64,000 nucleotides of DNA from a virus (IMGVR_UViG_3300046336_000034:1-64000), one strand, 5' to 3'; shown: positions 13,342 to 52,683, counted from the first letter of the stretch. Notes: generated by a model not told the origin, from the letters alone. Numbers and translations: made by a program.

Positions 13342-13935
13342 TTAAATACCGTGCCTCTCTGAGTATTTGATACCGTAATTTTGTTCGAGTAACCACAACT
13401 GCTTAGTTCTATAGTCTATTGCCATTTGCTTAGCTTCGTTTTCGCCGTGGGCATGAATTGGAAAGCTTTTCATACATTGCTTATCATTTTCATCGTACCA
13501 ACTAGCCCTCCAATAAGTATCTATCTTACCTGATGGTTTTTTCTTATTGTAACGATGAACACCTGTAATACCAGAGGTGTTTCTGGATTGCTTTTTTCTG
13601 TTCTTGCTATTTTCACCGTCAGAAGAAACTCTAAGATTCATAATCCTGTTATCATCCTTCTTTCCGTTAATATGGTCTATAAGAGGTTGCTCCCCTTCAG
13701 GGTAGTCACCGTGGATATACGTCCAAGCTAAACGGTGTGCTTGGTATAGATGACCACTAAACCCGATTCGCACATAACCATCTTTCCCCATATTACCAGC
13801 AATTTGTCCTGCTTTAACATTTCGTGCAGGGGAGACCAACCAATAAAACAAGCCAGTCTCATACTCGTAACATAGTAATTCTTTCAACAGCGTATAGGGT
13901 AGCAATGCTTCTTTCTTCTTATTAACCTTAGTCAT
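13342..13935 (-). CDS. HNH homing endonuclease with AP2-like C-terminus
   Basis: HRLAW, DHINGKKDDNRIMNLR, NTSGITGV; likely ATG 13935 behind AAGGA. Confidence 0.88.
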   Translation of the reverse strand: MTKVNKKKEALLPYTLLKELLCYEYETGLFYWLVSPARNVKAGQIAGNMGKDGYVRIGFSGHLYQAHRLAWTYIHGDYPEGEQPLIDHINGKKDDNRIMNLRVSSDGENSKNRKKQSRNTSGITGVHRYNKKKPSGKIDTYWRASWYDENDKQCMKSFPIHAHGENEAKQMAIDYRTKQLWLLEQNYGIKYSERHGI

Positions 13936-13968
13936 TTTATTCCTTGTAATCAAAATATGTCGCTTAAA

Positions 13969-14026
13969 AACAACAAGCAGGGTGGTAACAAATCACCTTT
14001 TCGGACTGCATATCCTAGCCTGTGTT
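13969..14026 (-). ncRNA. HEG-leader three-way-junction RNA, copy A
   Basis: ACAGGC-UA-GGA..UCC-GAAA-A-GGUG[AUUUGUUAC]CACC-CU-GCUUGU. Confidence 0.7.
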
Positions 14027-14033
14027 ATCTTTA

Positions 14034-14062
14034 ATTATAACACTAAATGTGCAGGTTGTCAA
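14034..14062 (-). promoter_or_regulatory. consensus sigma70 promoter upstream of leader RNA A
   Basis: TTGACA-17-TATAAT with extended TG. Confidence 0.85.
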
Positions 14063-14523
14063 GATAAATCTGACAAACAGAATTGCTGTTCGGCTTCTCT
14101 ACGCTTTATTAAGCCTTTTAACTCCACTAACTGCCCTGCAACTCTTGCCTTGTTCCATTTTGGGAGTTCATTACAAGCCTCTTTATATTTACCCTGAGAT
14201 AAGTATTTAGAGGCTGTGCTATTACAAGCTACTGCACCACCGATGTTGAACACAGCATCAGAAAAAGAGGCTCTTACCTTGTCAGGTAAGTTTGGATGGC
14301 ACTTGTCTACAATATCAACGGCTTCTTGCATATCTGTACTAATTAAGGATTTACACTCTTCTAATGAATACTTCCTACCCTTAACAATGTCGTTACCTGT
14401 ATGTCCGTAGCAGACTGTCAATATTCCAACGGGGTCTGTATAAGCATATTGACGTAGCCCCTCGGCAGGGATGGCTAGTGCTAGTGCCAATAGGATAATA
14501 CGAGAGGTATTATTTATTGTCAT
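14059..14523 (-). CDS. endolysin, GH24 lysozyme, probably SAR type
   Basis: E-x8-D-x5-T triad (EGLRQYAYTDPVGILT) right after a hydrophobic N-terminus; GL..RR..E C-terminus. Confidence 0.92.
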   Translation of the reverse strand: MTINNTSRIILLALALAIPAEGLRQYAYTDPVGILTVCYGHTGNDIVKGRKYSLEECKSLISTDMQEAVDIVDKCHPNLPDKVRASFSDAVFNIGGAVACNSTASKYLSQGKYKEACNELPKWNKARVAGQLVELKGLIKRREAEQQFCLSDLS

Positions 14524-14800
14524 TGGATACTCTCTTTTCTATCTCTGCTAATTCTTTAGCGAGTACCCTCATTTGTAAATCGTATTGGAGTTTATCTCGC
14601 TCATCTGCTTCAATAGCCCGTCTATCTGCCCTTGTGTTTCGATAGTACGAGACAATCTGGATAAACACACCTACAACAAGAGCGACAAAACCAAGCATCT
14701 GGGTAAGGTCAATTCCTTGCAGTAAACTCGCAACCCAAGCTACTCCCCCTGTCATTGACACTTTAAACCCGAACGGTTCGTTCATCAAATCATTCATCAC
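14510..14800 (-). CDS. putative holin
   Basis: Hydrophobic segments plus charged C-terminus; overlaps endolysin start. Confidence 0.6.
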   Translation of the reverse strand: MMNDLMNEPFGFKVSMTGGVAWVASLLQGIDLTQMLGFVALVVGVFIQIVSYYRNTRADRRAIEADERDKLQYDLQMRVLAKELAEIEKRVSNDNK

Positions 14801-14993
14801 TTTTTCCTAAATTCAAATAAACATAAACTACAGTAAACACAACAGGCACTCTACCTATTGCGTATAGAATATTTTGTTGCCAAGCGTCTACGGTGAGTTT
14901 ATTGATAAAAGGTACAACAGATAGACCAGTGAAAAACAGCACTGCGCTAACAGCTAATGTCAAACCTATAACATCCTTGATTTCTAACTTCAT
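14790..14993 (-). CDS. small 2-TM protein (lysis-associated candidate)
   Basis: Hydrophobicity; position in lysis cassette. Confidence 0.5.
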   Translation of the reverse strand: MKLEIKDVIGLTLAVSAVLFFTGLSVVPFINKLTVDAWQQNILYAIGRVPVVFTVVYVYLNLGKSDE

Positions 14994-15175
14994 ACTACAC
15001 CCTTATCTAGTTTCTTCTCCGCATAGGACGATGTCCCATACACACCTAAAGCTCCTATAACGAGAGACACCAGTGCAGAAGATTCTAGGTCAGTTGTCCA
15101 AGCTGTTATAAAAGCTAAAAGAATAACACTAGATGTTTGAATGTACCTTCTTGATAAGTACTTATTATCTTCCAT
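14990..15175 (-). CDS. small 2-TM protein (holin/antiholin candidate)
   Basis: Basic N-terminus (SRRY), two hydrophobic helices. Confidence 0.5.
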   Translation of the reverse strand: MEDNKYLSRRYIQTSSVILLAFITAWTTDLESSALVSLVIGALGVYGTSSYAEKKLDKGVV

Positions 15176-15596
15176 CTTTTTCTTTCTGAAGTCTTGCTAT
15201 GTAAGTCAAGAGAACTTCTGGTGTAGCTCGTTCATCAACTGCACCCAGCATCATGTAAAGGACTAACTCGTAACAGTAGTATCGTCTTGAGTCCCGCACC
15301 TTTAAGAACAGAAAGGATAATAGGCTGAAATAATCATAAGCACAGTCCTTAATCTGGTTGTACCGCTCAAGAGCTAACTCATTAGGAATGTCGTACTCAA
15401 ACCATTCGTAGTCTTGAGCAAGAGCAGTTGTTATAGGATAATCTCTTACACCTGATTTACTCTGGTCACCTTTTAGTGCAGTGGACTCATAGAACCTGTC
15501 ACCAATCCAGACACCAGCGTGTGACCACTGAGAGGTAGTGAGTGTCCTGACAATACCACTGTACCATTTATGACCTTTTTTGAAACCTATCCTCAT
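15165..15596 (-). CDS. permuted papain-like NlpC/P60 (YiiX/YaeF-type) protein
   Basis: WSHAG before YDY and YYCYELV (His precedes Cys). Confidence 0.75.
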   Translation of the reverse strand: MRIGFKKGHKWYSGIVRTLTTSQWSHAGVWIGDRFYESTALKGDQSKSGVRDYPITTALAQDYEWFEYDIPNELALERYNQIKDCAYDYFSLLSFLFLKVRDSRRYYCYELVLYMMLGAVDERATPEVLLTYIARLQKEKDGR

Positions 15597-15608
15597 GGTA
15601 AGTGCCTC

Positions 15609-16118
15609 CTATATTCCTAGAGAAGCGCGGATAGCTGTGACAAAGCCACCCCATTGTTGCATCGCTGTAGACACATCATTGGTAATGTTCTTCTTAGCTG
15701 TGAGGCGATTAGCACGTATAGCAGAAGCTGCTCCCCTCCAAGCATTTGCTTGTGCAATAATGTCGTCAGTAGCTTCTTGTGCAGTTGTCAAACCTTTAGT
15801 ATTGTTAGTCAACCAGCTTGCAACAAAAGAAGGGACAGCACCTGTGTACAGTGCAGCTTTAAATGCGTTTGCTTGTAGCTCTGCTTCACTGTACTCTGTA
15901 GCCCTATTGCCAATAGCTGCTGCGTAGATTAAGTCCACGTCAGCATCGACTTTTTTGAGTAATTCTGCCTTGGTGGGTGGTACTGGTACAGGGATGTTTG
16001 CTATACGAATAGCCTCAGCTTCTTCGTCGGTAATGGGTACACTTCCGACAGGAAGTAGATAAGCGAACTCTGATGAGTCGATTACGTGGAGTTTATTTTG
16101 AGTATCTTTGTAGTGCAT
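15609..16118 (-). CDS. tail fibre assembly/chaperone-like protein
   Basis: MHYKD..N.L start, helical C-terminus; follows fibre genes. Confidence 0.55.
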   Translation of the reverse strand: MHYKDTQNKLHVIDSSEFAYLLPVGSVPITDEEAEAIRIANIPVPVPPTKAELLKKVDADVDLIYAAAIGNRATEYSEAELQANAFKAALYTGAVPSFVASWLTNNTKGLTTAQEATDDIIAQANAWRGAASAIRANRLTAKKNITNDVSTAMQQWGGFVTAIRASLGI

Positions 16119-16127
16119 ATTTGTTCC

Positions 16128-16988
16128 TTAAATAGACTCGAACCAATTATTAAGTGTCCCAGTGCCAGAAGATACGATGACTGAATATGAACCACTTGGC
16201 GGCACGTCAACTTGAACACCGACTGCTTGATTTGTCGTATTACCGCCATTAGGCCCCCAGACAACAGCTACACCATTGACAATCCCATTCATACTCATTG
16301 CTGCAGCAGTAGCAGTCGCATACACAGAGACTTTTTTTACCTTGCTTGAGGTGTTGTAATAAGTAGTTCCGAAGACTCGCCCCGGTGTTGTTTTTACATC
16401 GGTATAGACAAAATTCGCCATGGTAGCAAGAGCCTGACCACCCATAGGTTGAACCAAACTCAGCGCAGTCGCATAAGTACCAGCAACAGCCTGTGTGGAG
16501 TCAAGGCAACCCACAACGCGATAAGCAACGGATGTTCTAGCAGTCGTTGAATAAACCACCGAAGCAGATGTTGCACCAGCAGATATTGCTGTTGTGGAAA
16601 TCAAGCCCATTTCACTCAGGTCAACGCCACCCGCTTGATTCACTACGGCAAGCTCTTTTGTCCCTGTCGCATTCAGCTCCAGCACAATGTACCGAGCAGC
16701 TACAGCATTAACCGAACCAAGGGTTGCGCCTTGTGGAATGGTCAGCGTCAGTGGTGAAACATTAGATAGCTGTACTGGTGCGCCAGTAGCTAATGTCGTT
16801 GGTCGGAAAATCGTGGAGCATTGCCCCATTGTGATGACAATGGTGTTTGCAGTGGCAACAGCAGACAAGGGCTTGAAGCCGTTATCGACACCAGAGACAA
16901 CACCTGTGGCATCCATGATTAGTGAATCAACACCATTAGTCTGAATAGCGGATTGTGTGGAGTTTTTTGCGTAGATTGAAGTGGTCAT
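16128..16988 (-). CDS. tail fibre / receptor-binding protein
   Basis: Thr/Ala/Gly-rich; C-terminal R.FGTTYYNT...VPPSGSYSV tip domain. Confidence 0.7.
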   Translation of the reverse strand: MTTSIYAKNSTQSAIQTNGVDSLIMDATGVVSGVDNGFKPLSAVATANTIVITMGQCSTIFRPTTLATGAPVQLSNVSPLTLTIPQGATLGSVNAVAARYIVLELNATGTKELAVVNQAGGVDLSEMGLISTTAISAGATSASVVYSTTARTSVAYRVVGCLDSTQAVAGTYATALSLVQPMGGQALATMANFVYTDVKTTPGRVFGTTYYNTSSKVKKVSVYATATAAAMSMNGIVNGVAVVWGPNGGNTTNQAVGVQVDVPPSGSYSVIVSSGTGTLNNWFESI

Positions 16989-16989
16989 G

Positions 16990-17613
16990 TTACGCAACCC
17001 TTGTTATAGTAAAACCAGTACGGTCTGTTGAAGCTCCAGAGGAGGTAATACCGTGTGCTCGTATCACATCGTTAGCTGCAAGTGGTAACGTAACGGCAAT
17101 CGTTGATGGCAAATCATTTGCCGATGTAACCGCTAGTGCTAGCCTTGTGGCAACAGTGATACTTGTGGGGGCAGTTGTTAGTTGTGCGCTGTTTAGACTA
17201 ATTGCCATACCGCCAGTTGTACTAAATGAATCCGTATAACTAATGGCATAAACTCCAGCTGTGTTGATAGTGAATGTCGCACCAAGAGTTGCACTGTCGG
17301 CATAGGTAATATCAGAGCCTGTATTTGTGACGATATTTGCGAATCTGCGTATAGCTATATTTGTACTGCCGTAACCGTTAGCCGTATTGAGTCTAACGGT
17401 CGGAGGTGGCACAATCGGACTGAGTGCAGGCAATCCTTGCATAAGCTGCAACTTCCCATCCGCCCCAATAGTCAAAATATCCTGCGTAGTCGCTCCGACA
17501 TTACCCCGTGCGAGGGTTGCTGTGCCATCTGCGTTGGTGCGTAGTGTGAAGTTCTGTGTAGCAGTGGCGGAGTCGCCTAGCTGTACAGCGTTTGTTTTGA
17601 TGGTTCCGGCCAT
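16990..17613 (-). CDS. tail fibre-like protein
   Basis: Beta-rich; FTINTAGVYAI...LAANDVIR C1q/TNF-like head; start MAGTIK. Confidence 0.62.
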   Translation of the reverse strand: MAGTIKTNAVQLGDSATATQNFTLRTNADGTATLARGNVGATTQDILTIGADGKLQLMQGLPALSPIVPPPTVRLNTANGYGSTNIAIRRFANIVTNTGSDITYADSATLGATFTINTAGVYAISYTDSFSTTGGMAISLNSAQLTTAPTSITVATRLALAVTSANDLPSTIAVTLPLAANDVIRAHGITSSGASTDRTGFTITRVA

Positions 17614-17621
17614 AGTTAACC

Positions 17622-18050
17622 TTATGTATTGTAAAAATGAGACTGCAATTTGGCAGCCCATCCGTCTTTGATTGTTTGTGTAATCAAAGGGTTTGTAATT
17701 GCTTGAACCTTACCAATGGCAATTTCAAAACTTAATGTATTGATAAAGTTCAACAGCTCTTGCAACTGAGGGTCCGACATCAAGCTCACTAATTGTTCTA
17801 GTGACCACGTTCCAGAGACTAATCTTGCTACGTTTTCAGTTGCAAACTCTGACATGATTGTTTTGACCGCCTCGTATCGTTTTGCATATTTGATTAAACG
17901 AAGCTCGTCTGGAGTTTTAGCTGGTGGTGTGGGTGCATCATCTTCTATTGATAGCATTTGACCCGCTCCGACAGTTGGTTGATACTGCTCAGTATTAGAG
18001 CCAAAACAAACTACTTCATTTAACGCATTTCTAACTACTTTGAAACTCAT
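17622..18050 (-). CDS. tail fibre-associated/chaperone protein
   Basis: Position between fibre genes. Confidence 0.5.
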   Translation of the reverse strand: MSFKVVRNALNEVVCFGSNTEQYQPTVGAGQMLSIEDDAPTPPAKTPDELRLIKYAKRYEAVKTIMSEFATENVARLVSGTWSLEQLVSLMSDPQLQELLNFINTLSFEIAIGKVQAITNPLITQTIKDGWAAKLQSHFYNT

Positions 18051-18565
18051 GCTGCAAACTCCTTAATGGTGATTCGTGAAGCCATAACGCCGCCGTAAAA
18101 GCCCGTTGAAGAATTACCATTTATTGTGGTAGTTCCAGCTATATTCCCACCAGAACGGACGCTAAATGTTGTTGCAGATGTAGTCCCTGCGGTCATAATG
18201 TGTTTAAACGTCACTGGAGTTTCCCCACCTGCGACTACGTTTGCAGATGCCACAGTAAGCGCATTTGCAATAGCACCTTGAAACAGCGCAACTGCTTGGT
18301 ATTGCGGTCCACTGTTTGAGACAACAAGGGTCACATCAATTTCTAGCATGCTTGCTGCACTTGTAGGAGTAATCGCCAAACTAAGGTATTGGTCACCTTC
18401 TGTTATTTGAGGTATAGAGCTGTCGTGAGGAATTAGTGTTGTACCAGTAGCAACCGCACCTGTTTGGTAGGTCACGCTTTGCAACAGACGCTTAGGTAGT
18501 ACATCTGCTGAAGCTGCTCTATCAGAACCAGTAATAGTCCCTGAGCCATTTATTGTTATACTCAT
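18047..18565 (-). CDS. tail fibre-like protein
   Basis: MSITINGSGTITG start; ITPTSAAS...SRITIKE beta domain. Confidence 0.6.
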   Translation of the reverse strand: MSITINGSGTITGSDRAASADVLPKRLLQSVTYQTGAVATGTTLIPHDSSIPQITEGDQYLSLAITPTSAASMLEIDVTLVVSNSGPQYQAVALFQGAIANALTVASANVVAGGETPVTFKHIMTAGTTSATTFSVRSGGNIAGTTTINGNSSTGFYGGVMASRITIKEFAA

Positions 18566-18575
18566 TTGTTATTCC

Positions 18576-19145
18576 TTAAACAATTACCCATGTTGCACCT
18601 GTTGGTATAGTGACGACAATGCCAGTATTTATTGTGATTGGCCCTGCTGTGGAAGCATTCTTACCTGCTCCTAGTGTGTAATTAGTAGTCACAACTTGGT
18701 CATTCTCTACAAATACTTGGTCACCACCTGCACCAGTTGCACCTGCACCACCAGAAATAGGTGACCAGTGTGTTACATCTAGACTTGGGTCAATTGTACC
18801 TGACGTTGCTAAGATGCAACGATACACTCGCATATTCAGAGGACTCCATGCTGCATTACCTACAACATAAGATGCTGCACTTACCCACATTGGAGCACCT
18901 GCTGCTGAAGCTGCTTGTCCTGCTGCCACTTCTGCTGCTGCTGCATCTAATGCGGCTTGTACACCAGCATTGAATGCCTCTGTCGCATTGTTGTACACAT
19001 TGTTAAGCGCAAGCTGTAACTCAGGAATTTGTGTATTCTTGATGAAATCATCACGAGCGATAGAACGAGCTACAAACGTAGGTCGGTCTGCCCTATCTGG
19101 AGATAACCCAGCAGGGGTTAGTGTTGGAGGAGCAATTACTACCAT
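18576..19145 (-). CDS. tail protein with CBM5/12-like module
   Basis: WVSAASYVVG...VYRC...DPS.D..HW; C-terminal fibre-joining motif. Confidence 0.6.
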   Translation of the reverse strand: MVVIAPPTLTPAGLSPDRADRPTFVARSIARDDFIKNTQIPELQLALNNVYNNATEAFNAGVQAALDAAAAEVAAGQAASAAGAPMWVSAASYVVGNAAWSPLNMRVYRCILATSGTIDPSLDVTHWSPISGGAGATGAGGDQVFVENDQVVTTNYTLGAGKNASTAGPITINTGIVVTIPTGATWVIV

Positions 19146-20077
19146 TAGATAAATCCTTTTATTGAGAGAGACATGATTGAGTGCGTAGGCCCTTCATAAC
19201 TGAGAGTCCCTGATGCAAGCCCAAAAACATTCAACCCTGCAAAGGTGCTTGCGTCTGAGCCAATCCATGCAGCAGGTACATCAAGTACGTCCTGAAGTGT
19301 TAGTAAAGCAGTATCAGAGTCATTGTTACTTAGTATCACATTGATGTCCATATCTGTTGCACTTGCACGTTTGACGATTTTTGTTTTACCAAAAGCATCA
19401 GTGCTGATATAACTATATGTGATTGGTTTAGCAGAAGCACCATACTGTGTACCGCCACCTTCTGTTGTTAAGGAGCGTAAATCTCCAATAGCAATTAAGC
19501 CTATCTTTGCAACACCTGCACCTGCTGTAATTGTTATAGTCAACTCAGGGTCTGCGTAAGGTACTAAGTCCTTGATGAAAACCTTTGATAATTGTTTAAA
19601 CGAAGTTGGAAAATAATAATCGTAGTGGTCTACAGGTGGTGAGATTAACTCAGTCGTTGATGTGTAGACTACACTACCACCAACTGAGTCTTTCAATGTT
19701 ATTACACAACTATCACCGACTATTCCATAGAGGGCAATAGCATTGAAGATACCGGGGCGTAGCACATAGGTTAAAGTACCTGATATACTACTTGGTGTAT
19801 TAACCTGTCCATCAAATGCTGCCCACTTGTTAGTTGGGTCTACATCCACCCACCGAGGTATTGCATCAGCGATGGTCAACTCTGGCGGGGTTGCATTAAC
19901 ACCTGCGATAATGTTCTCGTACACTCTATGAGTAGCTGTACGAATGACTCTATCACCTTGGGCATAGTTAGTAGCAGCATTCCAAGCAGTTTCACCTGCT
20001 GCTGGTTCAGCAATGGTGCTACTAGTAAGTAGTGCATCCGTGATAACAAGTGGTACTAGGACAAATACCCCACTCAT
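19145..20077 (-). CDS. distal tail-like protein with CBM5/12-like insert
   Basis: Directly after tape measure; WNAATNYAQGDRV...PTNKWAAFD. Confidence 0.6.
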   Translation of the reverse strand: MSGVFVLVPLVITDALLTSSTIAEPAAGETAWNAATNYAQGDRVIRTATHRVYENIIAGVNATPPELTIADAIPRWVDVDPTNKWAAFDGQVNTPSSISGTLTYVLRPGIFNAIALYGIVGDSCVITLKDSVGGSVVYTSTTELISPPVDHYDYYFPTSFKQLSKVFIKDLVPYADPELTITITAGAGVAKIGLIAIGDLRSLTTEGGGTQYGASAKPITYSYISTDAFGKTKIVKRASATDMDINVILSNNDSDTALLTLQDVLDVPAAWIGSDASTFAGLNVFGLASGTLSYEGPTHSIMSLSIKGFI

Positions 20078-25905: not shown

Positions 25906-25981
25906 CTTATTTCCTACTTATATTCTTTTTCTGTTTTAGCACTTGTTAAAATACCAAAGCAGAAAAGCCCCGCATGGAGGC

Positions 25982-26768: not shown

Positions 26769-26881
26769 AATATTCCTTTTTGTTTTCTAGTGAGATTTAC
26801 ATAAACAGAGTAACCCCAGAATCGGGGTTATCTTTTTGGACTGTACAGCTTTTATAAGTATTATTAACTGCACATAGTATT

Positions 26882-26910
26882 ATTATATCATACAATCTGT
26901 TACATGTCAA
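26882..26910 (-). promoter_or_regulatory. consensus sigma70 promoter
   Basis: TTGACA-17-TATAAT with extended TG. Confidence 0.8.
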
Positions 26911-26945
26911 GGGAAATATACTAAAGTGCATTATGTATAGGCGTT

Positions 26946-26980
26946 AAAAAACCCCTAAGGAGGTTAATCCAAAGGGGTTA
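26946..26980 (-). terminator. intrinsic terminator after tail tube gene
   Basis: AACCCCU...AGGGGUU stem followed by U-tract. Confidence 0.65.
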
Positions 26981-27000
26981 TATATTCTCACTAGAGGATA

Positions 27001-28264: not shown

Positions 28265-29089
28265 TCAACAACCGTCAATTTCTTTAACTTTGCAGTTATC
28301 AAAATGAAATCTAACCATCGCTGGTTTGAATGTTGATTGTTTGCCGCAATGTGGGCAAACTAGAAGAGGCTGATTTAACCAGTAATCTTTCAGCTTCTGC
28401 TTGCGCTCGTCTGTACAGGACATATCTAAGAGTGATTGAGCTAGTTTTATTTTACTTTTAGTCTCTTCTGTTCTCTGTTTTCCGAAGTTCCAATGCGTCT
28501 CACCTCCCATGCCATATTGAGGGTGGTTTACACCTGTATGCATCTGAGACATTAAACGTTTTGTCTCTTCGGTATGCTTCTTACCTTTAAAAGTACCGTC
28601 CCTGCTCTTGTAGCTTTTAATAAGAGACTCGGATAATTTTCTCAATGTCTCCTGAGTTTTAGGTTTACCTGTGTTAGCTTTTCTTACTGCTTCTTTTTGT
28701 TTTTCTGAAGTGCCAAGACCCGCTCTACCTTCTCCACCATCCGAGAGGTTAGTAAGAATGCCACCGTTATTGTCTATCCTCTTTCCGTAGAGAGAGATTA
28801 ACCTTATCTCCTCCACATACATTTCCTCTGCCGTCTCATACTGTTGGTGTAATCTTATGACAACAATTTCATTATCTTCTTGCATTCTTTTTATTTTACT
28901 TTTGACAAGAAAATTAACTCTATCCTCATTTTCAGAGAAATGCCCGTACACCCTTTTCCAGTTACAGGATGTGCCTATATAGAAAGGCATATCCCCCTGC
29001 ATTAGCATATAAACGTAATAAGCTTTACCAAGTGGTCTAAGAAAAGCTCCCACATCATATCGTGAGTTAAAGTCTAAATTCTGAAACAT
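28265..29089 (-). CDS. GIY-YIG homing endonuclease with NUMOD3-like repeats
   Basis: YYVY...FYIG...R; LTNLSDGGEG; GKKHTEETKRLMS; C-terminal CPHC. Confidence 0.85.
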   Translation of the reverse strand: MFQNLDFNSRYDVGAFLRPLGKAYYVYMLMQGDMPFYIGTSCNWKRVYGHFSENEDRVNFLVKSKIKRMQEDNEIVVIRLHQQYETAEEMYVEEIRLISLYGKRIDNNGGILTNLSDGGEGRAGLGTSEKQKEAVRKANTGKPKTQETLRKLSESLIKSYKSRDGTFKGKKHTEETKRLMSQMHTGVNHPQYGMGGETHWNFGKQRTEETKSKIKLAQSLLDMSCTDERKQKLKDYWLNQPLLVCPHCGKQSTFKPAMVRFHFDNCKVKEIDGC

Positions 29090-29124
29090 ATTTTCTCCAT
29101 TAAAGAAACCATTACTAAATAAAC

Positions 29125-29180
29125 AACAAGGCGGTACAGGTAATGACTCTGTATTTTCGGGAGCAACCCCTAGCCTTGTT
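29125..29180 (-). ncRNA. HEG-leader three-way-junction RNA, copy B
   Basis: AACAAGGC-UA-GGG..CCC-GAAA-A-UACAG[AGUCAUUAC]CUGUA-CC-GCCUUGUU; extended -10 TATAAT at 29191-29196. Confidence 0.75.
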
Positions 29181-29223
29181 TCAACTAAACATTATACCAC
29201 AATTTGTAACAGTTGTAACCACT

Positions 29224-30930: not shown

Positions 30931-31497
30931 TTAAATTATATCTTGTTTTGAGGATGTCGTAGACTTCGTGTATTCTGCTAAAGCCTGACTATGTTCGAAA
31001 GAGAACTCACCATAGAACTCTTTGACCCATTCCAATCTAGCAACGATAGCCTCATCTTTTGTATTAAATCGCCTACGAAGAGGGCACTTTACGTCTACAC
31101 TTATACCCGCAACCCATTTATTACGTGCTTTGTCAAAATGCACACCTATAGTGCCACTTGTGTTTTTCTCAGAGGCAGTCTTATTCATGTTATTAGACCT
31201 ACGAGAACACTCACGTAAGTTAGATATCATATTGTTCAGACGATTACCGTCGATGTGGTCGATATCTGCAATTGGAAATCTTCCGTGCACATGTAGCCAA
31301 ACTAGGCGATGGGCGTAATTCAACTCACCTGCAAAGTTAATACGCCAGTAACCACTGCTATGTAAAGTACCTGCAACACTTCCAGCCCTGCATCCTCCAC
31401 GACATTGTTTCCAAGTTAAGTCCCCCGTTTCAGGATTATAATCTAAGGCATCTCTTACTTGTTTTTGAGTTAGCTCAGGTGAGTTTATTTTCGACAT
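30931..31497 (-). CDS. HNH-AP2 homing endonuclease
   Basis: HRLVWL, DHIDGNRLNNMISNLR, NTSGTIGV. Confidence 0.9.
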   Translation of the reverse strand: MSKINSPELTQKQVRDALDYNPETGDLTWKQCRGGCRAGSVAGTLHSSGYWRINFAGELNYAHRLVWLHVHGRFPIADIDHIDGNRLNNMISNLRECSRRSNNMNKTASEKNTSGTIGVHFDKARNKWVAGISVDVKCPLRRRFNTKDEAIVARLEWVKEFYGEFSFEHSQALAEYTKSTTSSKQDII

Positions 31498-31523
31498 TCT
31501 ACCCTCTTTGATAATTTATAGGT

Positions 31524-31576
31524 CAAGGCTATCCGTGAAAGAGCACAGAAGAGGCTTACAGACCTCGTTTACCTTG
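31524..31576 (-). ncRNA. HEG-leader three-way-junction RNA, variant copy C
   Basis: CAAGGU..GAGG[..]CCUC-U-UCUGUG[CUCUUU]CACGGA-UA-GCCUUG; loop matches AAAGAG at the RBS; promoter TTGCAA-17-TACAAT at 31615-31643. Confidence 0.6.
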
Positions 31577-40520: not shown

Positions 40521-40558
40521 TTATAAGCCCCGTAATACACACTATTTAAAAATATAAA

Positions 40559-42235: not shown

Positions 42236-42238
42236 GGT

Positions 42239-42436
42239 TTATTTAATTTCTATAGTGTCGATGATGTAGGAACTGGATGCAAAGCGTAGACCTTCTGGTA
42301 GCTGAATTACTTTATCGTAGTAAATCATTGTTCCATCGCTAAGTTGAACAGGGTTACTATCTGATTCAAGAACACTCCCTACGTATTTACCGTCTGTAGT
42401 GTCCGTGATACAGAGTTTTAATTTTTTAACTTTCAC
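42239..42436 (-). CDS. small hypothetical protein
   Basis: ORF track; packing. Confidence 0.55.
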   Translation of the reverse strand: MKVKKLKLCITDTTDGKYVGSVLESDSNPVQLSDGTMIYYDKVIQLPEGLRFASSSYIIDTIEIK

Positions 42437-45030: not shown

Positions 45031-45031
45031 T

Positions 45032-45682
45032 TTATAATATCTCTGTCAAAACTGAGGTTAAAATCCCCGTTGTGTAATTAAGCGTCTTACGCACTGTTTG
45101 GTCTACTTGGAAATGGTCAACATACTGAAGAACACCACCTGCCCAATACAAGAGTTTATATGTACCGTCTGCGTAGTCCACTCTTTGCAAATCTTCACCT
45201 GAATAAGTCAGTTCATCTAGACCCTCAGTCTCTGTACTCACTGTTCCAGTACCTGTGGCGGTTTGAACCACGACAACGGAATGTTCAACGGCTGTGATAG
45301 GTGCAACATTGGAAACGATAGTTTTACCATCTGCAAGTTTAAGAATTAAACGCCCTTTATCGTCGAATTGAGCGCCTACAACATCGTTCCCTTGGGGTAG
45401 GTTAGCCTTGGCTATTTGAGGCTCTTGTAGAGCTTCCTGATAAGCCTGTGGGTTATTTCTGATGTCCAGGATTGCTTGAAGGTGTCTTGGAACAGCAGGT
45501 TTAACAAATTTCTTAATTGTTTTCTGCTCTGCCTGCTTTACAAGGGCTAAGCCTTTGAAGATTGCCTCATCAGTTGACCTACCGTTTGCTAGGGCTTCAT
45601 TGGCTGCGTCTGCAAAGAGTAATCTTATTTCTCTACTCTTCCCTTGTAGTGTGGGGTGTGTTGATAGGGCTGTGTATTGCAT
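45032..45682 (-). CDS. ChaB-like N-terminal domain protein
   Basis: P.L....IRLLFADAANEAL..G...AI..G..VK; start MQYTAL overlaps the HNH 3' end. Confidence 0.5.
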   Translation of the reverse strand: MQYTALSTHPTLQGKSREIRLLFADAANEALANGRSTDEAIFKGLALVKQAEQKTIKKFVKPAVPRHLQAILDIRNNPQAYQEALQEPQIAKANLPQGNDVVGAQFDDKGRLILKLADGKTIVSNVAPITAVEHSVVVVQTATGTGTVSTETEGLDELTYSGEDLQRVDYADGTYKLLYWAGGVLQYVDHFQVDQTVRKTLNYTTGILTSVLTEIL

Positions 45683-46253
45683 CTTGTTTTCCGTGTCTCT
45701 CTGAGTACCTAGCACCTGCTGCATTGAGTTCTTGTTGTTTTAGTAATTTAAAATTCATTGCTAAGTCAAAAGCTCCGTCTACACCGTATTTCGAAATTGA
45801 AAAACTCCTGCCACACTGTTTTCCAGAGGGGAGTTTCCAATTTACTTCCCATGACTCATAGACACGCCCTTTTATAATCTTTTTACGCAAGCACATCCCT
45901 GTGAAACCAGAAGTGTTTGTTGACCGCTTCTTCTGGTTTCTTGAGTTAACCGCATGAGACACTTCTCTCAGATTGAGAAAACGATTGTCAGAGCGATTAC
46001 CATTCTTGTGGTCAATTTCCTCCGTAGGGAAAACACCAAACGCGTATAACCAAGCTAAACGGTGAGCTTTATACGGAATGTTATCTATCTTAATTACTGT
46101 GTAACCATGTTGGATAGTGCCAGCGGGTTGTCCCACTTTGACACTGTTTGCGTGAGGATAAGGTTTCTTAATCCAGACAAACACCCCAGTCTCTTTGCTA
46201 TAATCTAGCACCTCTTTTAACCGTTCTCTGGTTAATTCTCTATTAAATTTCAT
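45633..46253 (-). CDS. HNH homing endonuclease with AP2-like C-terminus
   Basis: HRLAWLY, DHKNGNRSDNRFLNLR, NTSGFTG, YSERHG. Confidence 0.9.
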   Translation of the reverse strand: MKFNRELTRERLKEVLDYSKETGVFVWIKKPYPHANSVKVGQPAGTIQHGYTVIKIDNIPYKAHRLAWLYAFGVFPTEEIDHKNGNRSDNRFLNLREVSHAVNSRNQKKRSTNTSGFTGMCLRKKIIKGRVYESWEVNWKLPSGKQCGRSFSISKYGVDGAFDLAMNFKLLKQQELNAAGARYSERHGKQDAIHSPINTPHTTREE

Positions 46254-46287
46254 TCTGATTCCTTCGTAAAAGGCGTAATAATAAAAG

Positions 46288-46337
46288 CAAAAGGAAGTAG
46301 TTTACGAAGCTACTTGTCGGCTGCCGCCTATCCTTTG
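46288..46337 (-). ncRNA. HEG-leader three-way-junction RNA, copy D
   Basis: AAAGGA-UA-GGC..GCC-GACA-AGUAG[CUUCGUAAA]CUACU-UCCUUU; promoter TTGAAA-17-TATAAT at 46355-46383. Confidence 0.78.
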
Positions 46338-46386
46338 TTATAACTTAATAATATATTATATCACAAATACTCTAGTATTTCAAATA

Positions 46387-47856
46387 CTATGCCGCATTAT
46401 CTGTATTTACACTGGAAGTATCTGTTCCAGATAATGTATTAGCTGTTCCCTCTCCTGCTGTTTTCATTCCATCTCCTGAACGGGAAGTCTTTTCTGGGAG
46501 AATTACATCTAAATCTGTACCTTCTGGTAGGGAGTCTAAACCTAATTTACCTAGGATGTCATTAATAACGTCAAGACTTCTAGGTAAGAATCCAACAGCA
46601 CCTACTCGTTGTACAAATTTGGAATATGATTCCATGTCTGTATCTTCAAAGCCCTCATAATCAAAGGTACACTGGCGAGATATATCCCATCCGTTTAATT
46701 CATACAGATGCTTAATAAGGTCGTTATTAAACACCTGCACAATACTTTTCAAGTACGCTTCTACTTGAGTGCCTGTCAGTGAGTTCTTAATTGATGCTAA
46801 AGCAAAACTACCTGTCGATGTGTTACCTAAAAGTAAGAGGTCAGCAGCTAGTCCAATGAATATCATCTCTCGGTAGTAAGATTTTATTTTCGTTGTATCA
46901 AAGGACTTCTGACCTACCGTGGACATAAGTTCCAAGTCAAACAGCTTCTGCTTAGTATCTGGGTCTACATCACTAGGAAGCATCACACCTGCTTGAGAGT
47001 TCTGCTGAAGATTCCTGAGGATGTTCTGGAAGTTCAAGAGTGCTGCTTTTTGTTCAGGGGATGCCTCAGAGGACATGTACTGAGCAGGTAAGGTTAATAA
47101 AGGTACACCCTGTAAATCCTTAGCTACTCCAGATGCCTCAAGTTCTTCAATCGCTTGTAAATACTTCCAAGGAAGGTATACGTTCCTCAAAGGAGAAGTA
47201 CCGTAAGGGTTGGTTTTATTCTGTCCTACAGTGAACAGTAAGAACTTCTCACGAGGGAGAACAACAACACCTGTTGGGTGCTTTGTATAACGTCCAAAAG
47301 GGTCGTTAACGTATGCTAGGTTTTGCTTCATACCTATTACATCGTTACCCTCGTCATCAAACACAAAATTAGTGATACTTTGTTGATGACGTAACGCTAA
47401 CTTTTTAATCCCAACCAAACCATCGTTGTACATAGAACCTTCTTCTTTGGTTCTACGGCGAAGGACCTTCTCTAGTGGTGCAAAACCATAATCTAAGGAA
47501 GTTAAACTGGAAGCAATGACATCCTCTAGCGGGATTTCCATATCACCGAGCATTTGCTCGATAATTAGTGCTTGCTTCTTCTCTTTAGCTGTGGGGTTTT
47601 TACAAGGGAGAACTCTAAAAGTTGCTTTAGTCAACATGGACTTATAAAGACCTATTGCTGCATTACATGCTGGATGTAGAAGCATTTGTTTGTAGGTCTT
47701 TAAGTTCGTTGGAAAGTTCAGTTCAGATTTGATTTCCTCAGCAGGAATACCACCAAACATTCTCATACCTGATACACCCATTTCACCTAGAGTAAAGGCT
47801 TCTGGTTTATCTAATCCACTGTACGATTTTTCTACTTTTGATTTTCTTGTTGTCAT
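46387..47856 (-). CDS. portal protein
   Basis: 489 aa after terminase; YGFAPLEKV, NPYGTSPLR, GSFALA motifs. Confidence 0.9.
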   Translation of the reverse strand: MTTRKSKVEKSYSGLDKPEAFTLGEMGVSGMRMFGGIPAEEIKSELNFPTNLKTYKQMLLHPACNAAIGLYKSMLTKATFRVLPCKNPTAKEKKQALIIEQMLGDMEIPLEDVIASSLTSLDYGFAPLEKVLRRRTKEEGSMYNDGLVGIKKLALRHQQSITNFVFDDEGNDVIGMKQNLAYVNDPFGRYTKHPTGVVVLPREKFLLFTVGQNKTNPYGTSPLRNVYLPWKYLQAIEELEASGVAKDLQGVPLLTLPAQYMSSEASPEQKAALLNFQNILRNLQQNSQAGVMLPSDVDPDTKQKLFDLELMSTVGQKSFDTTKIKSYYREMIFIGLAADLLLLGNTSTGSFALASIKNSLTGTQVEAYLKSIVQVFNNDLIKHLYELNGWDISRQCTFDYEGFEDTDMESYSKFVQRVGAVGFLPRSLDVINDILGKLGLDSLPEGTDLDVILPEKTSRSGDGMKTAGEGTANTLSGTDTSSVNTDNAA

Positions 47857-47885
47857 ATATTGGATTAGCTCCTTGGAGATTTACT

Positions 47886-49585
47886 TTAAGTGAACTCGCC
47901 TTGTTGAAGGGGTGCTGCACCTGTGGGGAGTTGGGTTGTTTGGAAGCCGAAAGAGGTTGCTTGGGTTAGGTCTGGGAGGGAGAAGGATGGTAAAGGTGCT
48001 TGCTTATTTAGTAAAACAAAACAATCTGAACTTGCATCTGCTTGGTCGTCCTTATAATTATTAGTACCGTCGAAGGTTTCGAGTTCCCTGTGGTAATCCG
48101 CATTCCACTCACCTTTGACAATGCTAACAAAACCACCTTCTGCTACAGCAGCAAACGGAGCAAACCGCTGTACCTTAGCTCTTGTAGGCTTAACTAATCT
48201 ACAAATAAAACCAGCTTCTAATAGACGCTTTTGTAATCCCTTGACATAAGCTCCACCACCTGCGGGGTCAAGAGGTAATCCGACAACTACGTCTGTGCCA
48301 TCTGCTCTTGCTGTATTGAGAATAAGTTCTTCAACAACATGTGCTCGGTCACGAATCCTAACGACATCTTCAACTGTATAAAGTGACTTAACATCTTTAG
48401 ACATCAAAACACCTGCTGTATAATCAGGATTTTTCGAGGAGCTTTCATTTGGTTTTGTGAAACTCAAATCCCAAGCCCTGACACGTTTAAGCACCTTTGC
48501 GGGAGGGTATAGAACTTCTATTACCCAGTGTTGTTTCCAGTAACCTGATGCACTCTCACGAGCGTACCAAGAACCGTAAAGTAGGCGTTCTTTTTCTACT
48601 AGGGGGAGGGCTTTTAGTTTAGAAATATAGCTTGGGTCAGCCTTCATCAACACAGGATTTGAGTAGATATTCCCCGGAATAAATTTGAAACTAAGTATCC
48701 CCGACTCACCACCTGTGCCATAGATTTTCTCAAGTTCTTCTCTTGAATCTGCCCATTCCATACCGCCACCAGATACCTGCACAAAATACCTGTTAGGATA
48801 CTCATCCCGTATTATTGGAATACCTCGTTCGTCAAGTGCGTACTCAACCCACTCACGCATAAAGGAATCGTAATCGGGATTACCTGTCGCAAAGATTTGT
48901 TTCTTAAAATCTACGGAGGTTGACCTGAGCCTAGAGAAAAGATAAACCACATTCTCCCTAGAGAGCTGTTGAATTTCATCGAAGCCGAGAAAATTAAGTT
49001 CTGCCCCCTGCCAGTTATATTTATCTGATGGGTTATCTAAGTAAGCAAACTTCAATGTTGCACCTGAACTGAAGATAATTTCTAAGTCTCGATTTCTTAC
49101 TTTTAAAGCTGGGTCAACCTTCTTATATAATTGAATTGCAGCATCAAATAAGCCACCACTGTTACTAAGTTGCTTTGTTGTTTTACGAAATATCACACCA
49201 CGAGTACGAGGATGGTGACAGAACTTCAGGAATGAGCCAAGCAAGCAAAATGATTTACCTGCTCCCGCTGCCATATTTGTTATGTGATTCGTTAATTCAC
49301 TCCCATATTTCTACGGGTATCGGACTATATCTTTAATCTTTCGATTACCTACTGTTTCGACTGCACTTGCAGCCTACAAGCTTTCGCTTTAGTCTCTACA
49401 CACGCCCAGAGATTACTCTCTTGCTTGGCTCGGTATTGCCCTCGGCTTTACGTTAGGGTTTCACCGAATTAAATAGGTTTTGCTCGGAGGCGCAATTCAC
49501 CACCGTAGTAAGTTATATCAGCATCACTCAAAAGGTACTGCTCTTGAGCTTTGGACGCTGGTGCAAACACTAATTCTTCATTCAT
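47886..49585 (-). CDS. terL: terminase large subunit, spliced: exon 1 49585-49499, exon 2 49271-47886 (490 aa)
   Basis: Splicing restores Walker A YYGG|AAGAGKS; Walker B LGFDE, ATGNP, RAWDL and DDQAD nuclease motifs. Confidence 0.93.
49272..49498 (-). mobile_element. group I intron (IA2-like), 227 nt, no ORF
   Basis: 5' splice after U paired to G in P1; terminal G; P4 UCGGUG/UACCGA, P7 GACUA/UAGUC, AAGAUAUAGUCC, P7.1/P7.2, P8, P9. Confidence 0.92.
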
Positions 49586-50699
49586 CCGTTTCCTTTATTC
49601 TTATGTAGACATCTCGCATTTTATTTAATAAAACTGATTCAAGCTCCACAGGATAACATTCGGTGTAACCTGTTCTACGCATGTACTGTTTCATTTTTTC
49701 AACGGGAAGTTTATACTCTATGAAATCTGAGTGTATGTCCAGTTCAAGTTTTGTCGCAACTCTTCCATTAACAACAGGAAACGAGTAAAGCAGGTCTGAA
49801 GAACTTCCACCTAGTAAGCCATATTCTCTAATGCGGTTTTTTGGGTTTTTACCATAGCCGAGTTTTAAGAAAGTAAAATCAAATACCTTGATTTTAAATA
49901 GGTAGATATTACTTGCATTATTCAAATATGAATCGTTGCATTCGTGACAAATAAAATTATTACGAGTCACGCAAACTTTGTCTATATCCCTGATGTGCCC
50001 ACAGTCTACAAATCTATAACTTTTAAATCTCGATGGAAGCTCAAGGCTTGAGGCATCTCCTAGTAACTCTAATCCACGTTGCCTTACTAGCGCAAGATAT
50101 GCAACTTCTTCGCAGTCACTGCACTTAGGTACACCATGTTTAAGTCGGTGCTCTAACATATAGAAAGTATGCCCGCACTCTAAATGTCTGTACCTATTAT
50201 AACTGTTGGGGCGATTAAGATGCCTAGCTGCCTCTGGTGCTTTCTCTACTAACTCTATACCATATTTTGACGTTGCCAGTGTGAGCTTTGATTGCGTACA
50301 CTCATCACACACATAAGGAATGAGCGGAGGTTTTTGTAAATTACTGTAGAAAATATCTACCTCATGCCCACACTCTAGTACTTTGTACTTTCGTTTCAGA
50401 ACACACCCATCAGAGGAAGCCCCAAGACATAACAGACCTCTTAAAGACTCTGCTTCCTCTGCACGAGAGTCTGAGCACATCTTGCAAGTAAGTACTCCTT
50501 TACTATTACAAATATTACTGATTTGTCTAACCGTGGAATGACCACAGGTATTAAAAATATAGTTTCCGTACCACCTAGGTTTCTTTAAAAACATACTTAA
50601 TAAAGTAAGTCCACGTTTAGATGCGTATCCTTGATTTAATTTAAATCGTTGAACTTCCTTATTAGTGTTGTCATTGATTAAGTCTGTAAACATTCCCAT
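49578..50699 (-). CDS. free-standing endonuclease: CGH/CxxC zinc repeats plus C-terminal GIY-YIG (T5orf172-like) domain
   Basis: Four CGH...CxxC repeats; NIYLFKI..LKLGY..NP..RI...E..IH...GYTECY. Confidence 0.72.
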   Translation of the reverse strand: MGMFTDLINDNTNKEVQRFKLNQGYASKRGLTLLSMFLKKPRWYGNYIFNTCGHSTVRQISNICNSKGVLTCKMCSDSRAEEAESLRGLLCLGASSDGCVLKRKYKVLECGHEVDIFYSNLQKPPLIPYVCDECTQSKLTLATSKYGIELVEKAPEAARHLNRPNSYNRYRHLECGHTFYMLEHRLKHGVPKCSDCEEVAYLALVRQRGLELLGDASSLELPSRFKSYRFVDCGHIRDIDKVCVTRNNFICHECNDSYLNNASNIYLFKIKVFDFTFLKLGYGKNPKNRIREYGLLGGSSSDLLYSFPVVNGRVATKLELDIHSDFIEYKLPVEKMKQYMRRTGYTECYPVELESVLLNKMRDVYIRIKETDE

Positions 50700-50729
50700 A
50701 TTATCTCCTCAGATAATCCTCTAAAATAA

Positions 50730-50784
50730 AACAAACAGCGGGAGAATGAGGAGTTCTCTTTCGGGAATGACCCTAGCTGTTGTT
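50730..50784 (-). ncRNA. HEG-leader three-way-junction RNA, copy E
   Basis: AACAGC-UA-GGG[UCAUU]CCC-GAAA-GAGAA[CUCCUCA]UUCUC-CC-GCUGUU. Confidence 0.8.
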
Positions 50785-50795
50785 AAAACTATTAC

Positions 50796-51185
50796 TTACT
50801 CTTCGACCTTGTCAATTTCTTTACCACCAGAAATCATTGTCAACGAAAATACAGGTGCTTTAGTAGTAGGTTGAATTTCCTGACCTTCTTGTTCATCGTA
50901 CTCAGTTGAATAAACATCTTTAATCAACTCCCGATAAATCTGAAGTACCAGAGCTGCACTCTTCAACTTATTCTGGTCTGAAGAATCTTCGCTTTCTATA
51001 ATTTCCATCACAGTTTTAACACTTGATGAAAGATGAGGCTTCAACTTACGGATTAAGCTAATAAATTCTCTATTTCTGACCTCTCGGTTTGTTAGAGGCT
51101 CGGCTTTACGTCCGTCAATCCTGCCTGACATGTTAATATTAGGGTCGGTATCACCACCCAGTAACTCGCGTCTCTTAAAAACCAT
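50796..51185 (-). CDS. putative terminase small subunit
   Basis: Upstream of terL; DPNIN.SGR start; helical body. Confidence 0.5.
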   Translation of the reverse strand: MVFKRRELLGGDTDPNINMSGRIDGRKAEPLTNREVRNREFISLIRKLKPHLSSSVKTVMEIIESEDSSDQNKLKSAALVLQIYRELIKDVYSTEYDEQEGQEIQPTTKAPVFSLTMISGGKEIDKVEE

Positions 51186-51367
51186 ACTATACTATCCTTT
51201 TACACCTGAAAGTATACAATAATATACCACAAACAGCAAAAGCCTCCCTATAGGAAGCTAGTTAAAATTAATGACAATCTTTATTTAAACAGGCGTTGTC
51301 TTCCTGTTGACGCTTCGTACTTTTCAATACTCTCCGTGGTCAAAACGTGCCCTAAGGTAGTGGGACT

Positions 51368-51443
51368 TGGTGCTCCGTGGAGGATTTGAACCCACGACCT
51401 CACCCTTACAAGGGGCGCGCTCTTCCAACTGAGCTAACAGAGC
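51368..51443 (-). tRNA. tRNA-Thr(UGU)
   Basis: 76-nt cloverleaf; CGCCC-CT-TGT-AA-GGGTG; GTTCAAATC; encoded CCA. Confidence 0.93.
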
Positions 51444-51452
51444 TAATTCTTT

Positions 51453-52043
51453 TTAGACTTTACAATCGGTTGTACCATTCAGTACGCCGTAGATATGCGG
51501 TAACCAACCCTTGCGAACTTCACCGTTGGTGAACTTACCATCAACTACTTGCCCCTTGATGCCTACCTTAGCACCGCCAACATCTACAGCCATGCCAAGT
51601 GAACCATCGAGATTCATACCACCTTCAACAGGGTAATCAGTAAGAAATAAATTTAATTTAGATTGTTCTTTAACAATCTGACCATTCGCATCAAACACGA
51701 ACTTAAAACCGTTTCCCAGTAAAGTCATTTCACCTCCTTGATTTCGCACATCAGTAGGATAGTCTCCTGTAATCGTAATACCCTTAGATGCCGCCTCAAT
51801 CACTAGGGCTTTAACCCTATCTTCCATAGGTGAAGCATCTACAGAGCCTGTAATCTGGCAAGAGAACTTAGTCACTGCTGCAGGAGCAGTCTCAACAACT
51901 CCACTGGTGCAAGCTGTAGTAGCTAATATTAAGACAAGGGTAAAAATAATAAAGGAAACCTTCAACCAATGGTGATTCCAAAAATTCATATCTGGCTTAA
52001 TCCATTTATTAACCCCGTTAAGCGAGTAGTTTATTTTCAACAT
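51453..52043 (-). CDS. putative lipoprotein
   Basis: Hydrophobic stretch followed by TTAC lipobox-like site; start uncertain. Confidence 0.55.
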   Translation of the reverse strand: MLKINYSLNGVNKWIKPDMNFWNHHWLKVSFIIFTLVLILATTACTSGVVETAPAAVTKFSCQITGSVDASPMEDRVKALVIEAASKGITITGDYPTDVRNQGGEMTLLGNGFKFVFDANGQIVKEQSKLNLFLTDYPVEGGMNLDGSLGMAVDVGGAKVGIKGQVVDGKFTNGEVRKGWLPHIYGVLNGTTDCKV

Positions 52044-52593
52044 TCTTGTCCTTTTCTATTATAACTGGGTAAAATACGCCACTATACTCTAGCGCCTTAC
52101 TTTCATATACACTGCTTGCTTCCTGTGGTGTTGCAAAGCTTCCAAGATGGATTTTTTCACCTGTCAAGCTACGTATTTGAGCAACATATCTGCACGATTT
52201 TATATCCCAACTTACACCCTTAAGACCACTTGTATTGCTTCTAGGCTTACTTGTATTTCTTTTGTTTTCTCGGTGCGAGCAGACCCTGAGATTACTAATA
52301 CAATTATTAATAGGATTCCTATCAATATGGTCAATTAGGTTTTGTTCTCCGAAAGGAAATTTCCCATGAACATATAACCAAGCTAATCGGTGTTCCAAGT
52401 AGGCTTGACCATCAATCTTAATTACCCTATAGCCATTAGGTCTTAAATAACCTGCCCTGTTACCTACTACAATCTTGCTATAAATGGAACTTTTCTCAAT
52501 CCAAGTAAAGACTCCAGTATTGGAATCATATTTTAATAATTCTTTTAACCTGTCTAAAGTTAACTTTACTTCTTTTCTCTCGTTGGTTTTCAT
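52018..52593 (-). CDS. HNH-AP2 homing endonuclease
   Basis: HRLAWLY, DHIDRNPINNCISNLR, NTSGLKGV. Confidence 0.9.
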   Translation of the reverse strand: MKTNERKEVKLTLDRLKELLKYDSNTGVFTWIEKSSIYSKIVVGNRAGYLRPNGYRVIKIDGQAYLEHRLAWLYVHGKFPFGEQNLIDHIDRNPINNCISNLRVCSHRENKRNTSKPRSNTSGLKGVSWDIKSCRYVAQIRSLTGEKIHLGSFATPQEASSVYESKALEYSGVFYPVIIEKDKNVENKLLA

Positions 52594-52629
52594 TTTGTTT
52601 CCTTAGTTAATAGGATAGTTACTAATAAA

Positions 52630-52683
52630 ACAATCAGCAGGAAGGTAACTAATCTTCTTTTCGAGAATGACTCTAGCTGTTGT
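52630..52683 (-). ncRNA. HEG-leader three-way-junction RNA, copy F
   Basis: CAGC-UA-GAG[UCAUU]CUC-GAAA-A-GAAG[AUUAGUUAC]CUUC-CU-GCUG. Confidence 0.78.

Follow-up and report, generated by a model that had tools for sequence, protein, structure and literature searches.

The RNA family int-alpA (RF02996) is an orphan entry of Rfam, where it is typed 'Gene; sRNA' with no role assigned. It was reportedly a candidate of the 2017 comparative survey of Weinberg et al., whose main text (PMC5737381) does not carry the name. Our literature search found no paper testing its function: one match was a list of predicted small RNAs (sRNAs), and the other concerned int-alpA-pri as a gene order of phage satellites rather than an RNA. 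We analysed the initial 64 kb of a freshwater virus record of 87,008 bp from IMG/VR (IMGVR_UViG_3300046336_000034:1-64000, hereafter the window), in which most genes lie on the minus strand and six structured leader RNAs, designated A to F, had been predicted ahead of homing endonuclease genes (HEGs). Sequence and covarying fold place A, B, D, E and F in int-alpA as a divergent, AT-rich branch, and in four of them the variable loop is complementary to two downstream sites, one of which lies at the ribosome binding site (RBS). On balance we favour the reading, held with modest confidence, that these five are cis-acting leaders that throttle translation, the loop pairing with either a decoy site or the RBS.

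Three described systems invite comparison. C4 of phages P1 and P7 (RF01695) and the CI RNA of satellite P4 are small structured RNAs carried on the same transcript as their targets; their loops pair with two repeated sites in their own operon, one of them over an RBS, and loop and targets covary between heteroimmune phages. C4, with its two loops, is released from the transcript by RNase P cleavage and works in trans; the effect of P4 CI is on transcription termination. A comparison with C4 and c4-2 had been suggested, but in Rfam searches at E <= 10 neither of these families, nor c4-a1b1, matched the regions of leaders A to F. In the repZ/repA system of IncI-alpha and IncB plasmids (Rfam PK-repZ, PK-repBA), the loop of an upstream hairpin pairs just 5' of a Shine-Dalgarno (SD) sequence that itself lies in a hairpin, and the resulting long-range pseudoknot governs translation, which it activates; it forms only when a leader peptide is translated, and a separate antisense RNA prevents it from forming. 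Compared by description only, the leaders differ from repZ in having a second, putative decoy site in cis and in that the RBS-proximal site often lies on the SD itself. Finally, in T4-type HEGs (I-TevI, I-TevII, I-TevIII, Aeh1 mobE and T4 segB), RNA structure at the initiation region limits translation (review PMC3014915). Their control uses simple local hairpins, with the I-TevI switch set by the promoter used, whereas the leaders would combine a portable three-way junction with action at a distance through a variable loop and with a decoy site.

All six elements were recovered on the minus strand where they had been predicted, each 5' of a minus-strand nuclease-type open reading frame (ORF). 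With the RF02996 covariance model, whose cut-off is 35.8 bits, B scored above the cut-off and E, A and F below it (Table 1), the latter three at E-values between 1e-3 and 9e-2; neither D nor C was reported at E <= 10, and Rfam run with default filters over the whole window missed every int-alpA copy. A covariance model built from A, D, E and F (R1) found only the five copies A, B, D, E and F in the whole genome. A second model (R3), built from 82 sequences that all came from outside the window and searched against the window with filters off, recovered the same five, the lowest-scoring of which, D, had an E-value of 8e-6; the next match scored 11 bits. C was undetected by R1, R2, R3 and Rfam. 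The leaders are a divergent AT-rich branch of a catalogued family rather than a new one; as the original prediction itself had allowed, such a match takes away the novelty of the motif, although Rfam gives the family no role.

The Rfam consensus and the window copies share the same architecture: P1, UA, P2, GAAAA, P3 with a loop of ~9 nt, CY, P1', a pyrimidine-rich linker and a short conserved tail. In the consensus this tail, uaAgGG, complements its own P3 loop, CCuUua, and is the equivalent of the first target site (site 1) described below. The window copies differ in being AT-rich, with four of five below the Rfam cut-off, and in their surroundings: the family name refers to the vicinity of int and alpA, whereas each window copy stands 5' of a nuclease gene in the structural or lysis modules. 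Genomic context plays no part in the RF02996 model. Furthermore, Rfam describes no second, RBS-proximal site (site 2) for int-alpA, whereas B, D, E and F have one.

The scaffold predicted for five of the elements holds for A, B, D, E and F, which read P1-UA-P2-GA(A/C)A(A)-P3[loop]-P1', with a P3 loop of 7-9 nt, one or two pyrimidines before P1' and a U-rich linker after it; C, which had been taken for a variant, is not a member and forms a three-way junction of its own. The compensatory pairs of P2 are as predicted (GGA/UCC, GGG/CCC, GGC/GCC and GAG/CUC), and the junctions of D, GAUAG and GACAA, deviate from those of the family. Folding z-scores of single sequences are weak (-0.5 to -2.0), and the case for the structure therefore leans on comparison between copies. 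Two other identities were rejected. ARAGORN and Rfam returned just the two true tRNAs, which argues against a tRNA-like element, and a hammerhead-like ribozyme resembles the leaders in topology and in its GAAA, but with a J1/2 of only UA the catalytic core (CUGANGA ... GAAA) is lacking, and the Rfam E-value searches gave no ribozyme match.

To extend the comparison beyond the window, we sampled 80 loci from a sequence-pattern scan of IMG/VR that gave at least 120 matching stretches; 78 of the 80 had a model match at E <= 0.1, and in the 18 loci scanned with Rfam there were 11 int-alpA matches above the cut-off, in 10 loci. Across 74 distinct rows of an alignment that was fitted to the model, 87% of the cells of P1-P3 and the pseudoknot were paired (100% for P3, which shows four pair types at three positions), and double-sided changes numbered 351 versus 104 in shuffles. 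On one alignment (A7), just 58% of the pseudoknot cells were paired because the tails are out of register, and a permutation test was used in place of that count.

The original prediction held that each P3 loop complements the RBS of its own gene. This is so for B to F, in which the longest Watson-Crick match between the loop and its own tail spans 6 pairs in B and in C, 9 in D and 7 in E and in F, but A reaches only 4 pairs, or 5 with one G-U. Loops matched the tails of other copies over at most 4 pairs, the single exception being the A loop with the F tail (6). The RBS-proximal site was thus correctly placed, but a second complementary site had been missed: in B, D, E and F, site 1, of 5-9 bp, lies ~7 nt past P1', while site 2 is on the SD or immediately 5' of it; in A, site 1 is imperfect. 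The presence of two target sites instead of one changes the likely mechanism. Calculated duplex energies favour site 2 in D (-3.5 kcal/mol for site 1, -9.9 for site 2) and in E (-7.9 and -11.7), and slightly favour site 1 in B (-5.3 versus -3.3) and in F (-6.4 versus -5.1), where site 2 is predicted to sit in the loop of a UCCU/AGGA hairpin. A is the weakest copy, at -2.4 and -1.9 kcal/mol.

The same two sites track the loop in other phages. We compared 52 distinct loops that are followed by a start codon no more than 60 nt away. On average, they matched their own site 1 windows over 5.46 bp, versus 3.27±0.13 for permuted pairings, and their own RBS-proximal windows over 5.54 bp, versus 3.60±0.13; both windows reached at least 5 bp in 38 of the 52. 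The expectation that loop and RBS covary in other phages was therefore borne out, at site 1 as well as at site 2. In the family, the commonest start of site 1 is 7 nt beyond P1', and so constant a distance points to intramolecular pairing; site 2 ends 1-9 nt before the AUG. Leaders of orthologous DUF1376 genes carry at least six different loops, each with both sites altered to match; an ACCU/AGGU anti-SD hairpin presents their site 2 in its loop. In leaders of the primase group, site 2 lies between the SD and the AUG. A cultured example is the P22-like Salmonella phage BIS08P22, whose typical int-alpA leader, at 19310-19372, has both sites readable in its sequence. There (L214:1498-1585, record 19310-19397), the loop is CAUCGUCA, site 1 is UGACGA and site 2 is GACGA by the SD, and behind the leader comes an 89-aa ORF that belongs to no recognised family; a KilA-N gene lies to one side of this locus and the tail fibre region to the other. 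By blastn only, the BIS08P22 leader also has matches in Enterobacter phage Tyrion, Edwardsiella phage GF-2 and further phages.

In the mechanism that we favour, the conserved three-way junction (UA, GAAAA, CY) would present a hypervariable loop of ~9 nt on P3. Site 1 would act as a decoy, pairing with the loop to make a pseudoknot that leaves the RBS free, while pairing at site 2, often within the loop of a small anti-SD:SD hairpin, would occlude the RBS. The two sites use overlapping bases of the loop, so the pairings are mutually exclusive and, should both form in vivo and in cis, their relative strength would set a low, gene-specific level of translation. The products throttled in this way would be those harmful in excess, such as nucleases, replication initiators and antirepressors. 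Alternatively, the loop might move in a timed manner from site 1, which is transcribed first, to site 2, with the same outcome. Since site 2 covers the SD in E, overlaps it in D and F, abuts it in B and sits between SD and AUG in the primase group, occlusion of the RBS, with repression as its presumed outcome, is the simplest reading. The original observation holds in its core, and the mechanism first proposed, a structured antisense or pseudoknot switch with a re-targetable loop, was close, but it lacked the decoy and was over-specific in being confined to HEGs and in counting six copies.

Several points weigh against this reading. Action purely in cis gives no obvious reason for the loops all to differ, as a common anti-SD loop such as that of E would do, and loop diversity suits trans action with orthogonality at least equally well. 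By analogy with repZ, where the pseudoknot between the loop and the RBS flank activates translation, regulation could run in the direction opposite to that proposed. The complementarity of copy A is poor at both sites. The 80 loci were drawn by pattern, the alignments were fitted to the model, and kinship among the sequences inflates the permutation statistics. Support is at the level of sequence throughout, and the lone metatranscriptome with this phage, from freshwater, covers no leader: its coverage comprises 51757-52039 and parts of tRNA-like sequence. Two 151-nt contigs from that metatranscriptome, with 0-1 differences, lie over a 196-aa ORF downstream of HEG F and possibly represent DNA carry-over. 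In DNA runs, contigs resembling the elements had other flanks and were fragmentary.

Promoters bear on whether the leaders could instead act in trans. The sigma70-like promoters predicted 5' of A to D are strong at A, D and B, but that of C is weak (9/12) and lies 39 nt upstream. The promoter scan gave a promoter-like site at E (Table 1) and none at F, which is preceded by a terminator-like hairpin that was seen by eye and that the terminator scan did not list. In the family, a sigma-70-like promoter ending 3-14 nt before P1 was present in 18 of 78 members, against 1.8 expected from shuffles. On one metagenome contig (X3), a leader like F (6 differences and 2 gaps relative to window 52593-52682) stands behind an extended -10 promoter (TGTGTTATAAT) at the place where the window has the hairpin; F-type leaders with a promoter of their own thus occur in the same habitat.

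The strong promoters of A, B and D would start the transcript at most ~10 nt upstream of P1, and a U-rich run stands behind P1'. Together with the Rfam type of the family, this would suit a trans-acting sRNA in the style of C4 and CI, in which the junction is freed by termination at the U-rich stretch or by processing and its free loop binds site 1 and site 2 on full-length mRNAs of the same cassette, which would make the repression copy-specific. The five loops of this one genome all differ, as those of orthogonal regulators would, and trans action explains this better than a cis throttle does. We nevertheless regard it, the main rival of the throttle, as unlikely: P1 is weak at its base here and the U-run is not kept across the family; a trans target would have no need of the fixed distance of ~7 nt between P1' and site 1; a trans copy would lose out to the loop already present in cis on a full-length mRNA; and strong promoters of their own are missing at E and F. 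A broader conjecture, which we offer with low expectation, is that int-alpA leaders are widespread programmable regulators of phages, in which a constant scaffold carries an address of ~9 nt that is rewritten together with its two sites at each cassette move, possibly with release in trans as orthogonal repressors conferring a single-gene immunity like that of C4 and CI. Such orthogonality would account for the five different loops in one genome.

The pattern of conservation raises another alternative to a loop-governed cis throttle. Across phages of very different GC content, conservation is strong in the junction (CUAG...CGAAAAG...CCUG) and in the P2 loops, which come in a few discrete types, but not in the freely varying stems and P3 loop. 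The junction might be a platform that binds a host or phage protein or a small ligand and thereby chooses the pairing, in the manner of a riboswitch or of the rpsO mRNA pseudoknot bound by S15. The two-state design does resemble the expression platform of a riboswitch. However, the downstream genes have no common metabolic theme, the gene neighbourhood points to no partner, the junction is very small, and its conservation may reflect the needs of folding; we consider such a sensor improbable. Less probable still, to the point of being remote, is that the P1 stem and the U-run form a branched intrinsic terminator limiting read-through into the HEG, or that the 5' structure protects the mRNA, with the loop matches secondary. 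The window copies do have U-rich runs straight after P1', and in the Rfam consensus a GC-rich P1 is followed by a U-run. Yet several family members have no such run, so termination is not the core function; both sites lie 3' of the run and still covary with the loop, and the terminator scan was silent at the leader sites. The terminator reading was rejected on the first two of these grounds.

The throttle that we favour would serve genes of several kinds. Among the 59 distinct proteins encoded 3' of the sampled leaders were 13 of DUF1376, 10 DUF927 primases, 3 Rha and 1 P22 antirepressor, and about a quarter were nucleases (HNH_3, HNH, HNH_5, DUF559 and NUMOD3/4). The notion that the leader belongs to HEGs did not hold: leaders stood at only 2 of 80 loci of HNH_3 homologues in other phages, one of them on the opposite strand, and a general link between leader and HNH_3 HEG was accordingly rejected. 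All five window copies precede nucleases, and in this genome the association is therefore not a random one.

Comparison with two relatives, L207 and L208, supports the predicted behaviour of promoter, leader and HEG as a cassette. The portal protein of L207 is 98% identical to that of the window, yet 76 unrelated bases stand there in place of a 772-nt block (45622-46393) that holds the promoter, leader and HEG of D; the absence of the whole D cassette from so close a relative supports its portability. At site E, upstream of TerL, both L207 and L208 have a different leader of int-alpA type followed by a NUMOD4-HNH_3 HEG, and L208 retains the exact RBS hairpin of E with a different ORF behind it. 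The leader is thus part of the mobile unit and can also recombine at the start codon.

Table 1. Leaders, loop target sites, promoters and genes in the window.
Feature	Position	Strand	Details
Leader A	13970..14025	-	P3 loop 13985-13993; R3 51.7 bits, Rfam 26.2 bits
Leader B	29125..29180	-	P3 loop 29140-29148; Rfam 45.2 bits, R3 38.6 bits
Leader C	31504..31576 (wider span 31495-31576)	-	different three-way junction; loop CUCUUU 31538-31543; AAAGAG at SD 31504-31509
Leader D	46288..46338	-	P3 loop 46301-46309; divergent; R3 22.6 bits
Leader E	50730..50783	-	P3 loop 50747-50753, anti-SD CUCCUCA; R3 51.1 bits, Rfam 33.2 bits
Leader F	52630..52683	-	P3 loop 52645-52653; R3 64.1 bits, Rfam 25.6 bits
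Sites of A (degenerate)	13943..13963	-	site 1 13958-13963; site 2 13943-13949 by SD AAGGA; 4-5 contiguous pairs
Sites of B	29097..29115	-	site 1 29107-29115; site 2 29097-29102, abutting SD GGAG
Sites of D	46262..46278	-	site 1 46274-46278 (5 bp); site 2 46262-46270 (9 bp), overlapping SD AAGGA
Sites of E	50705..50721	-	site 1 50717-50721; site 2 50705-50711, the SD itself (UGAGGAG)
Sites of F	52603..52622	-	site 1 52616-52622 (7 bp); site 2 52603-52609 (7 bp), overlapping SD AAGGA
Promoter A	14034..14062	-	TTGACA, 17 nt, TATAAT, TG; 12/12; -10 ends 8 nt before P1
Promoter B	29191..29219	-	GTTACA, 17 nt, TATAAT, TG; 10/12
Promoter D	46355..46383	-	TTGAAA, 17 nt, TATAAT, TG; 11/12
Promoter-like site E	50788-50815		10/12
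HEG A	13342..13935	-	HNH_3 and AP2; start codon 13935
Nuclease B	28265..29089	-	two NUMOD3 motifs; PHROG 314 homing endonuclease
HEG D	45633..46253	-	HNH_3
Nuclease E	49578..50699	-	373 aa; PHROG 681; sub-threshold C-terminal T5orf172/MUG113 matches
HEG F	52018..52593	-	HNH_3
TerL exon 1	49585-49499		
TerL intron	~49498-49275		
TerL exon 2	from 49274		

Leader C folds with a z-score of -2.5 and has the junctions UAAAC, UU and AUAG. All 6 nt of its loop are complementary to the SD of HEG C, so the same problem may have been solved here independently. Outside the window, at G000:C1:86456-86540, an HNH_3 gene has an extended -10 promoter, a simple hairpin containing CUAGGGG, a U-run and an SD context like that of copy A; judging from these features, the hairpin may be the remnant of a leader that has lost P3.

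The closest cultured relatives of the source phage by TerL, Limnohabitans phage DC31 and Pseudomonas phages Bitten and PPSC2, are only ~50% identical, and no near-identical phage was found in the cultured-phage collection; no leader copy was found in Bitten. The genome has at least 12 nuclease genes (11 HNH_3 matches together with B and E), of which five carry the leader and a sixth the unrelated leader C. The nuclease types first assigned stand for A, C, D and F (HNH_3) and for B (NUMOD3). B and E had also been assigned to the GIY-YIG class, for which the Pfam model gave no match anywhere in the genome. Among the HNH_3 proteins of A, C, D and F, pairwise identity is just 35-43%. A single open frame of 298 aa with two HNH_3 domains, which lies outside the window at G000:C1:69004-69900, may represent a HEG in tandem or fused form. 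A match to the abiF RNA (Rfam RF03085) at 52744-52780 on the minus strand (40.7 bits against a cut-off of 37) occupies the interval from tRNA-Asn to leader F, ~60 nt upstream of the leader.

Next to nuclease E, whose stop codon overlaps the TerL start (ATGAATGA), the TerL gene is split by a small group I intron (RF00028, 65.5 bits) that has no ORF, and the break falls inside the Walker A motif (…YYGG | AAGAGKS…). A location of nuclease E within this intron was rejected, as TerL exon 1 begins at the stop codon of E and the intron holds no ORF. A free-standing nuclease adjoining an ORF-less intron recalls, by analogy, 'collaborative homing'. When window 47886-49274 was compared with L207:2081-3366, the L207 flanks were 90-95% identical in DNA, the intron was just 76% identical, and TerL exon 2 was left unaligned by blastn; this mosaic may reflect co-conversion around a homing site.

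For the int-alpA family as a whole, the covarying sites and the presence or absence of entire cassettes point to a testable function for what has been an orphan entry of Rfam, and the existence of cultured carriers, such as BIS08P22 and Tyrion, makes direct testing straightforward. If confirmed, the proposed function would reclassify int-alpA as cis-regulatory, would explain how free-standing homing endonucleases beyond the T4 group are kept at tolerable levels, and would provide a compact regulatory part that can be retargeted.

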